This document shows, in pieces, positions 33,087 to 36,000 of a DNA stretch of 64,000 nucleotides. The translations under genes were made by a program, and so were the position numbers. Below the pieces are notes generated by a model, which was given only the letters and a program-made list of their open reading frames with translations, was not told the origin of the DNA and ran no database searches. The stretch comes from Escherichia coli (GTDB lineage: Bacteria > Pseudomonadota > Gammaproteobacteria > Enterobacterales > Enterobacteriaceae): assembly GCF_001677475.2 (NCBI RefSeq), contig NZ_CP015229.1; one strand, 5' to 3'. The first letter of the stretch is position 1; every line of letters begins with the position of its first letter.

Positions 33087-36000
33087 TTACTCAACAGGTT
33101 GCGGACGCGCAGGAGCTGCAGAGGCATGATGCGTTGCCGTATGACCACCTGCAGCACCTTTACCTTCGAAGGCAAAAGTAGGGCGCTGCCAGTCACTGTG
33201 ACGCGGTGCCTCCGGAACATATTCCGGTGCCGGAGCGCGCGTCATCGGCGCGGTAGCGTGGTTATGCTCAACGGTGACCTCAGGTTCAACCGCAGCTACC
33301 GTTTCAACTTCTGCTGCGACTTCAGCGACGACTGGCGCGGCAGGTTGAGCAACAACTTCAGGTTCAGCAACCACAACCTCAGCAGTTTCGGCAACTTCTT
33401 CAATATCTGCCGTCTCTTCCTGCGGTTCAACTACCGGTTCTGCGTGTTCTGCAACTTCCTGGGCAACGGCAACATCAGACTCGGTAATCACCTGCGGCTG
33501 TTCAGTTACCGCGGCGGCAATTACTTCAGGATGCGTCGTTTCAACCACTTCCGGTTGCGGTTCGGCAATCTGAACGGGGGCTTCTACGACTTCAGCCACT
33601 TCTTCAACAACTGGCGCGCTAACAACCGGTTCGACAGCGGCGGCGACAGGGACCTCAGTCACCATCGGCTGCACTTGTACTTCTTCCTGTTCGCGCTGCT
33701 CTTCAACCTGTACATCTTGTGGACGTACAATCGGATAGCGGATCCAGACTTTGCCAGAGGCCAGTTCCGGAGACGCGCACGCTACGGTCAACGGCATTGG
33801 CGATTGGGTTGGATAACGCTCGTCACGATAGCGACGACGACGCTGACCACTTACGCGCAGGTGACGAGGCGAGCGGCGAGAACGACGCGGCATGCCACCG
33901 TTGTCACGGTTATCAGCATTGTTCTCTTCTTGCTGTTCTGGTGCAGTTTGCGCTACAACTGGCAGCGGGACTTTCACCAGTTCTGTGCGTGGAGCTGGCG
34001 CTTCCTGAACAATTGGTTCGGCAGCGACAGTTTCTTCAACCACCGGTGCGACTACCGCTTCTTCGGCTACGCTTTGCTCGTAACGCACTTTCTGATTGAG
34101 CTGACGCTGTTTACGACGCGGCTGAACCGGACGTACACGTTCTTCCTGTTCGGTTTCCTGAACAGATTGCTCTTCAACATTCAGCGCCCTCGCTTCTTGT
34201 TGCGCCTGACGTTTATCATCGTTACGGCGGCGGCTACGTTCACGACGCGGCGCTTGCTGCTCGTCGGTGGTACGCGCTTTTTCCGTTACCTCAGCCTGCT
34301 GACGGCTCTCACGCGTATCGGCAGTCTGCTGCTGTGCCTGGCGACGATTACGACGGTTTTCTTCGCGATTATCGCTGCCTTCAGTACGTTCACTACGGGT
34401 ATCGCGGCGCTCATTACGGTCACGGCGGTTGTTCTGACGAGGCTTGCGACGATCCTGTTGACGTTCCGGTTTCGCTTCTGCTTTCGGTGCTGGTTGCTCG
34501 GCCGGTTTGGTTTCTTCACCACCGCTGAACAGCGCTTTCAGTGCGCCGAAGAAGCGGCTCAACAACCCTGGTTGTGCAGGAGATGCTGGTGTTGCCGTTG
34601 CAGCTTTAGGTGCTGGGGCTACAACAGGCGCGGCAGGTTCAGCTGGGGTTGGTGCTGGCGGCACATCCGGCATGGCAAAGGTAGCCAGCGCAGGTTGTTC
34701 CGGACGCTTACGTTCAGCGAACTCTTCTTCAGACGGCAGCGCCATCGCTTCTTCATGCAGCTTCGGCAGCATGTAGCTTAAGGTTGGGGTTTCTTCCCCT
34801 TTGCGAACGCGCAGCACGTGGTAGTGCGGGGTTTCCATCTGATCGTTTGGCACAATCACACAGCGCACGCCGTCCTGACGAGTTTCAATCGCATTCACCG
34901 CAGAACGTTTTTCATTCAGCAGGTAAGAAGCGATTGGCACAGGAACAATGGCGTGAACTTCCTGAGTGTTCTCTTTCAGCGCTTCTTCTTCGATCAGACG
35001 TAGAATAGAGAGCGACAGCGATTCGTTGTCACGCACGGTACCGGTACCGGAGCAGCGCGGGCAGACGTGATGGCTGGATTCACCCAGTGATGGGCTCAGG
35101 CGCTGACGGGACATTTCCAGCAGGCCAAAGCGAGAAATATGGCTGATTTGAATACGCGCACGGTCCTGACGCACCGCTTCACGCAGACGGTTTTCTACCG
35201 CACGCTGGTGGCGTACTGGCGTCATGTCGATGAAGTCGATAACAATCAGGCCGCCGAGGTCACGCAGGCGCAGCTGACGAGCAATCTCATCGGCAGCTTC
35301 CAGGTTGGTGTTAAACGCAGTTTCTTCGATATCGCCGCCGCGGGTCGCGCGTGCGGAGTTGATGTCAATGGCAGTTAACGCTTCGGTGCTGTCGATAACA
35401 ATGGAACCACCGGATGGCAGACGGACTTCACGCTGGAAGGCGGACTCGATCTGCGACTCGATCTGGTAGTGGCTGAACAGCGGGATCTCGCCGGTGTACA
35501 GTTTGATTTTGCTGCTGAAATCCGGGCGACCTAATGCAGCGATATGCTGACGTGCCAGTTCGAGTACTTTCGGGTTATCGATAAGGATTTCGCCGATGTC
35601 CTGACGTAAGTAATCGCGGAATGCGCGAACGATTACGTTGCTCTCCTGATGAATCAGGAACGGGGCCGGGCGGCTTTCAGCGGCTTTTTTGATGGCTTCC
35701 CAGTGTTTCAGACGGAAGCTTAAATCCCATTGCAGCGCCTCAGCAGATTTGCCGACGCCAGCGGTGCGCACGATAAGCCCCATGCCTTCCGGCAGTTCAA
35801 GGCTTGCCAGTGCTTCTTTTAATTCGGTACGGTCGTCGCCTTCGATACGGCGAGAAATGCCACCCGCGCGCGGGTTGTTCGGCATCAGAACCAGATAGCT
35901 ACCCGCCAGACTGATAAAGGTGGTTAATGCCGCGCCTTTGTTGCCGCGCTCTTCTTTATCGATCTGAACAATGACTTCCTGACCTTCACGCAACACATCT

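Follow-up and report, generated by a model that had tools for sequence, protein, structure and literature searches.

The window (the whole 64,000-nucleotide stretch of Escherichia coli DNA analysed here) carries rne, the gene for RNase E, on its minus strand (Table 1). Its product has Pfam matches to RNase_E_G (1.1e-98), S1, RNase_E_G_Thio and PNPase_C, and the RefSeq annotation of the matching stretch in 5,425 complete E. coli genomes holds rne and nothing else. Opposite the C-terminal half of this gene lies an open reading frame (ORF) of 560 codons, which an initial annotation had singled out as the longest unexplained ORF of the window and had read as a compositional artefact. The frame is present exactly as that annotation described it. 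It is the longest of the window's ORFs that overlap a longer ORF, the next two in rank encoding 386 and 293 amino acids. Taken from stop to stop, the open stretch around it covers 33084-34778 (565 codons).

Table 1. Coordinates of rne, the antisense ORF and the signals around them.
Feature	Position	Strand	Basis or remark
rne (RNase E), 1061 aa	33087..36272	-	Pfam; RefSeq annotation of matching E. coli loci
Flagged antisense ORF	33099..34781	+	ORF listing; TTG start, TAA stop
Stop codon (TAA) of antisense ORF	34779..34781	+	Reverse complement of rne Leu498 (TTA)
AGGAG (33111-33115), then ATG (33126)	33111..33128	+	Motif alone, which does not show use
Terminator-like hairpin and T-run after flgL	32934..32962	+	137 nt upstream of antisense ORF
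Terminator-like hairpin and T-run	33045..33068	-	Just past rne stop codon

Few signals for expression surround the antisense ORF. The strong hairpin that follows flgL would halt plus-strand transcription before it reached the frame, and a crude consensus scan of 32700-35000 found no sigma-70-like promoter on either strand. No Shine-Dalgarno-like motif precedes the TTG start at 33099; the only Shine-Dalgarno-like start context of the ORF is the AGGAG that lies 10 nt upstream of its first in-frame ATG (33126), the one expression signal that speaks for translation. The one Rfam match in the region is the rne 5' UTR element (RF00040, 260 bits; 36297-36633, minus strand), which lies outside the antisense ORF. 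Antisense to this element runs another plus-strand ORF (36353-36727, GTG start, 124 amino acids, no Pfam match), which probably corresponds to the doubtful K-12 ORF yceQ.

Published surveys of bacterial translation were also consulted. No candidate opposite ribonuclease E appears in the text or in the 18 supplementary files of Zehentner et al. (2020), who surveyed several E. coli strains for embedded antisense ORFs by ribosome profiling; the supplementary files name mother genes by product. The supplement to a small-ORF survey (Stringer et al.) contains no rne entry, and nothing on antisense expression at rne was found in the review by Ardern et al.

Geometry and composition of the open frame

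The codon offset between the antisense ORF and rne is zero: the two sets of codons are reverse complements of each other, one for one, and rne codons 498-1058 lie opposite the ORF. Because the two frames are codon-aligned in this way, the antisense stops TAA, TAG and TGA are possible only opposite sense TTA, CTA and TCA. The rne gene contains eight TTA, two CTA and one TCA codon, all within codons 1-498 and none within codons 499-1061. The last of them, Leu498 (TTA), supplies the stop of the antisense ORF. The low-complexity composition reported in the initial annotation is borne out by codons 499-1061, which specify chiefly Ala (83), Glu (82), Val (66), Pro (63), Arg (57) and Gln (46). Leucine (15) and serine (21) together account for 6.4% of these 563 codons, against about 17% in the other genes of the window, and they are encoded exclusively by CTG, TTG, CTC, AGC, TCT, AGT and TCG. 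The stretch between the rne stop codon and Leu498 is free of antisense stops because leucine and serine are scarce in the C-terminal half and none of them is written as TTA, CTA or TCA. The reading of the ORF as a compositional artefact is supported, and all tests concur with it, but low complexity does not by itself explain the open frame: the mechanism lies in the geometry of the frame combined with few Leu and Ser residues and with the absence of the three stop-making codons.

Overall GC content is higher in the C-terminal half of rne (about 0.57-0.59) than in the N-terminal half. Its GC3 is lower (0.45 against 0.57) and its GC1 reaches 0.79, which indicates that the GC richness comes from amino-acid composition and not from codon choice. 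A GC3-driven avoidance of A-ending codons was considered as well and was rejected on the same GC3 values.

How unusual is such a frame? The amino acids of RNase E and the codon usage of the window predict about 4.8 antisense stops and give a probability of 0.0057 for none at all. Permutation of synonymous codons within rne gave a probability of 0.0345 for a longest run of at least 563 codons, the median run being 298 codons and the 95th percentile 556. For rne taken alone, the stop-free frame is a moderately unlikely event in the 0.6-3.5% tail; taken as the maximum over the approximately 52 genes of the window, it is not beyond chance. Across 52 long ORFs of the window, the codon-aligned frame has the lowest stop density of the three antisense frames (2.7%, against 3.6% and 4.8%), and all three of the longest overlapped ORFs are codon-aligned with the gene opposite. 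The 386-aa ORF (56360-57520, minus strand) lies opposite a PTS EIIC/EIIB (ptsG-like) gene at 56054-57487, and the 293-aa ORF (41267-42148, minus strand) lies opposite two ORFs of the fab cluster (40664-41617 and 41633-42562). Both are shadow ORFs of the kind seen antisense to rne.

Coding potential, selection and conservation

Coding potential was assessed from codon usage, as a log-odds score for which the other genes of the window served as the training set. The antisense ORF scored -0.080 bits per codon, below all 51 real genes (0.295 +/- 0.108, minimum 0.015), for which the codon-aligned antisense frames gave 0.051 +/- 0.092. Read in the sense frame, the C-terminal half of rne scored 0.367. 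This comparison of the two strands, which had been proposed as a check when the ORF was flagged, backs the artefact reading. The conceptual product is rich in Arg (15.4%), Phe (13.4%) and Leu (12.0%), with Cys at 4.3%, Trp at 3.0%, Glu at 1.1%, Pro at 0.7% and Lys at 0.4%, a composition that is the mirror image of that of the RNase E scaffold. A Pfam search with it returned no match at E <= 1.

Among 5.8 billion proteins only five look-alikes of the antisense product were found, all of them from rne loci. Four of them align to the antisense ORF and are unnamed gene-caller products without domains. The fifth (hereafter P0004), entered in NCBI/UniRef as 'ribonuclease E, partial [Escherichia coli]', is a chimera of 760 amino acids from a contig of 9,028 nt: RNase E makes up residues 1-576, and residues 320-507 of the antisense ORF make up residues 573-760, the two parts being joined at a shared RFFG. 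P0004 is probably an inverted misassembly, which the gene caller read through because the antisense frame is open. Homology was rejected as support for an antisense product, since each of the five hits is either the antisense translation of an rne locus or the chimera, and none is independent.

The sense frame of rne is under purifying selection, with dN/dS close to 0 in the N-terminal half and 0.05-0.22 in the C-terminal half. In comparison with K-12, sense dS is 0.072 in the overlapped C-terminal half and 0.077 in the N-terminal half; the corresponding values against L001 are 0.41 and 0.33. L001 is a record titled E. coli which, given its dS of about 0.33-0.41 from the window, was treated as a divergent Escherichia lineage. 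The overlapped half thus has a sense dS similar to that of the non-overlapped half, and so the synonymous-site constraint that the initial annotation had named as a possible mark of antisense coding is absent. The polymorphisms of the overlap that are synonymous in rne behave neutrally as well. Their effect on the antisense frame is nonsynonymous in 71 cases, synonymous in 11 and stop-creating in three (85 in total), against expectations of 74.6, 8.4 and 2.0 under a neutral model matched for transitions and transversions. With L001 included, the counts are 173, 21 and 3 against 173.1, 19.3 and 4.6. Purifying selection on the antisense translation is absent. The antisense-frame dN/dS (0.55-1.4) was dropped as a clean test because it is set by the constraint on the sense frame, and the control in the N-terminal half exceeds 5; the comparison of sense dS and the sorting of polymorphisms given above took its place.

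Variation within the species was followed in 18 complete E. coli genomes spaced evenly along the identity ranking. The full antisense frame is kept in 14 of them, owing to shared recent ancestry, and is broken or shortened in the other four. Antisense stops arise in E. coli W21 at rne Leu570 (CTA) and Leu571 (TTA), in JX2 through the rne substitution A554S (TCA), and in TB06051 at rne Leu770 (CTA), and GN4738 lacks RNase E residues 743-945 through an in-frame deletion of 203 codons. In all four strains rne is annotated as intact. The natural deletion allele of GN4738 (NZ_CM177114.1, 2897275-2899851) affects the scaffold region, and its annotation is that of an intact 858-aa ribonuclease E.

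A wider comparison drew on 80 rne loci from the Enterobacterales, in which the same antisense frame was inspected. The chance test covered 79 species, with codon usage estimated for each from the N-terminal half of rne and the flanking genes. Three of the 79 species have no antisense stop after codon 510, where 2.85 are expected, and the C-terminal part of rne contains 429 stop-making codons over all 79 species against an expectation of 384. Antisense stops are not avoided in the rne genes of the Enterobacterales. The frame contains five stops in E. albertii, three in Salmonella arizonae, one to six in Citrobacter species and one in L001, and most other relatives have 2-20 at positions that vary by species. 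Frames that are entirely or nearly free of stops, 545-704 codons long, occur in Klebsiella oxytoca, Pantoea piersonii, Pluralibacter gergoviae, Phytobacter and Kluyvera georgiana. The open frame is therefore sporadic in unrelated genera and is not conserved among the relatives that keep rne.

Interpretation of the antisense frame

Long antiparallel ORFs in frame -1 are a well-described class. They are found in excess across 929 genomes in a study that uses the same TTA/CTA/TCA formula and shows by Ka/Ks analysis that their translations are generally without negative selection (Moshensky and Alexeevski, bioRxiv 10.1101/724807). Examples include ORFs of more than 1800 bp opposite dnaK, which are reported for 282 dnaK genes and formerly constituted Pfam PF10712 (bioRxiv 10.1101/724807). 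Like the dnaK shadow ORFs, the rne ORF is a codon-aligned antisense frame opposite a sequence with few Leu and Ser residues and rare TTA, CTA and TCA codons, it shows no purifying selection, and it is sometimes predicted by gene callers whose predictions enter databases. Unlike the dnaK case, it is driven mainly by the unusual amino-acid make-up of the disordered scaffold (Leu and Ser 6.4%) and not by strongly optimised codons in a highly conserved gene, and open frames are confined to E. coli and to a few other genera in which they arose independently. The rne ORF has every defining feature of the frame -1 antiparallel ('shadow') class and lacks the features of overlapping genes that were tested, namely selection, conservation and gene-like codon usage.

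A second comparison is with antisense genes that have experimental support, among them pop (opposite ompA, E. coli O157:H7; PMC7103648) and olg1/olg2 (Pseudomonas aeruginosa; PMC8850804). Transcription and ribosome-profiling signal are reported for both, and purifying selection also for the Pseudomonas pair. The rne ORF resembles them in being long and embedded antisense in an annotated gene; its length of 1683 nt is comparable to the 1536 nt given as the longest reported. In contrast to pop and olg1/olg2, its selection tests are negative, its frame is broken in natural isolates, and neither the promoter scan nor the ribosome-profiling survey gave evidence of its expression.

The antisense ORF is very probably a non-coding shadow of rne, a by-product of the codons and the amino-acid make-up of that gene, and it would appear to have no translated functional product. 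The non-catalytic C-terminal half of RNase E, poor in leucine and serine, offers few positions at which an antisense stop could arise, and the E. coli lineage happens to encode these residues without TTA, CTA or TCA, leaving the frame open. Nothing maintains it in that state: it is not conserved, it is not selected and it is not gene-like.

Could the frame be a young, E. coli-specific overlapping gene, expressed from a plus-strand transcript (by read-through from flgL or from an unrecognised promoter) and translated from ATG 33126 into a functional Arg/Phe/Leu-rich protein of about 550 amino acids? Retention of the full frame in 14 of the 18 sampled genomes and the position of AGGAG 10 nt ahead of an in-frame ATG are consistent with such a gene, but isolates with an intact rne carry stops or the 203-codon deletion within the frame, a terminator lies upstream, and the crude promoter scan found no sigma-70-like site. 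The low probability of a stop-free frame in rne (0.006-0.035) could point the same way, as could the long antisense overlapping genes claimed in E. coli and Pseudomonas. A protein under selection is nevertheless contradicted by synonymous sites without constraint, by antisense-silent changes that are not enriched and by stop-creating changes that are not depleted (3 against 2.0 expected), and the codon score beneath that of every real gene, the lack of a Pfam domain and the lack of a 'ribonuclease E' mother gene in the 18 supplementary files of the ribosome-profiling survey tell against it too. Such a gene is extremely unlikely. A variant in which the frame became fully open only recently in the E. 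coli lineage, and in which low-level translation (e.g., from ATG 33126 after flgL read-through) yields a de novo protein of about 550 amino acids within an essential gene, too young for selection to be detectable, is just as improbable.

The frame might also be kept open by selection on rne itself, which would favour translation efficiency or mRNA stability by keeping the scaffold half free of TTA, CTA and TCA as rare codons. The antisense ORF would then stem from selection instead of from composition and chance. Such selection would account for the confinement of 11 of the 11 such codons to rne codons 1-498, and codon optimisation has been proposed for frame -1 ORFs opposite highly expressed genes (bioRxiv 10.1101/724807). 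Over the 79 species, however, these codons are used in the C-terminal part slightly more often than expected (429 against 384), close relatives have 3-6 of them, and stop-creating synonymous variants segregate within E. coli at the neutral rate. The lower GC3 of the C-terminal half (0.45, against 0.57 in the N-terminal half) likewise argues that it is not the more codon-optimised part of the gene. Selection of this kind is thus very unlikely.

With the ORF read as a shadow of rne, the case serves as a caution, in that the geometry of the genetic code, together with the odd make-up of the RNase E scaffold, yields an impressive frame of 560 codons. Such frames can contaminate protein databases and counts of 'orphan genes', as the four unnamed proteins and P0004 exemplify. 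A true gene of this length would rank with the longest antisense overlapping genes reported from bacteria, but the evidence opposes this.

The rne allele and its surroundings

The rne allele of the window is unusually divergent. Among the 5,425 complete E. coli genomes, the best match to its C-terminal stretch is 98.3% identical and none reaches at least 99%, while the neighbouring 8.3 kb (36800-45076, rluC to fabF) is matched at up to 99.4% identity, with 4,802 genomes at 99% or above. Between the rne of the window and that of K-12, dS is about 0.07 in both halves. The rne of the window may be a recombinant or rare allele.

Gene content also differs among strains on either side of this region. 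Some E. coli (e.g., C4, locus L086, 736-1520) carry a GNAT-family acetyltransferase and a DUF1778 protein between flgL and rne, an insertion that is absent from the window and looks like a toxin-antitoxin-type pair. A six-ORF chaperone-usher fimbrial cluster occupies 45144-51129 on the minus strand, just after a fabF-like ORF that ends at 45085; its order is Fimbrial, two ORFs without a Pfam hit, Usher/PapC, PapD chaperone and Fimbrial. The best E. coli matches to 36800-46800 cease to align at about 45076 (83% coverage), which indicates that the fimbrial segment is variable among strains.
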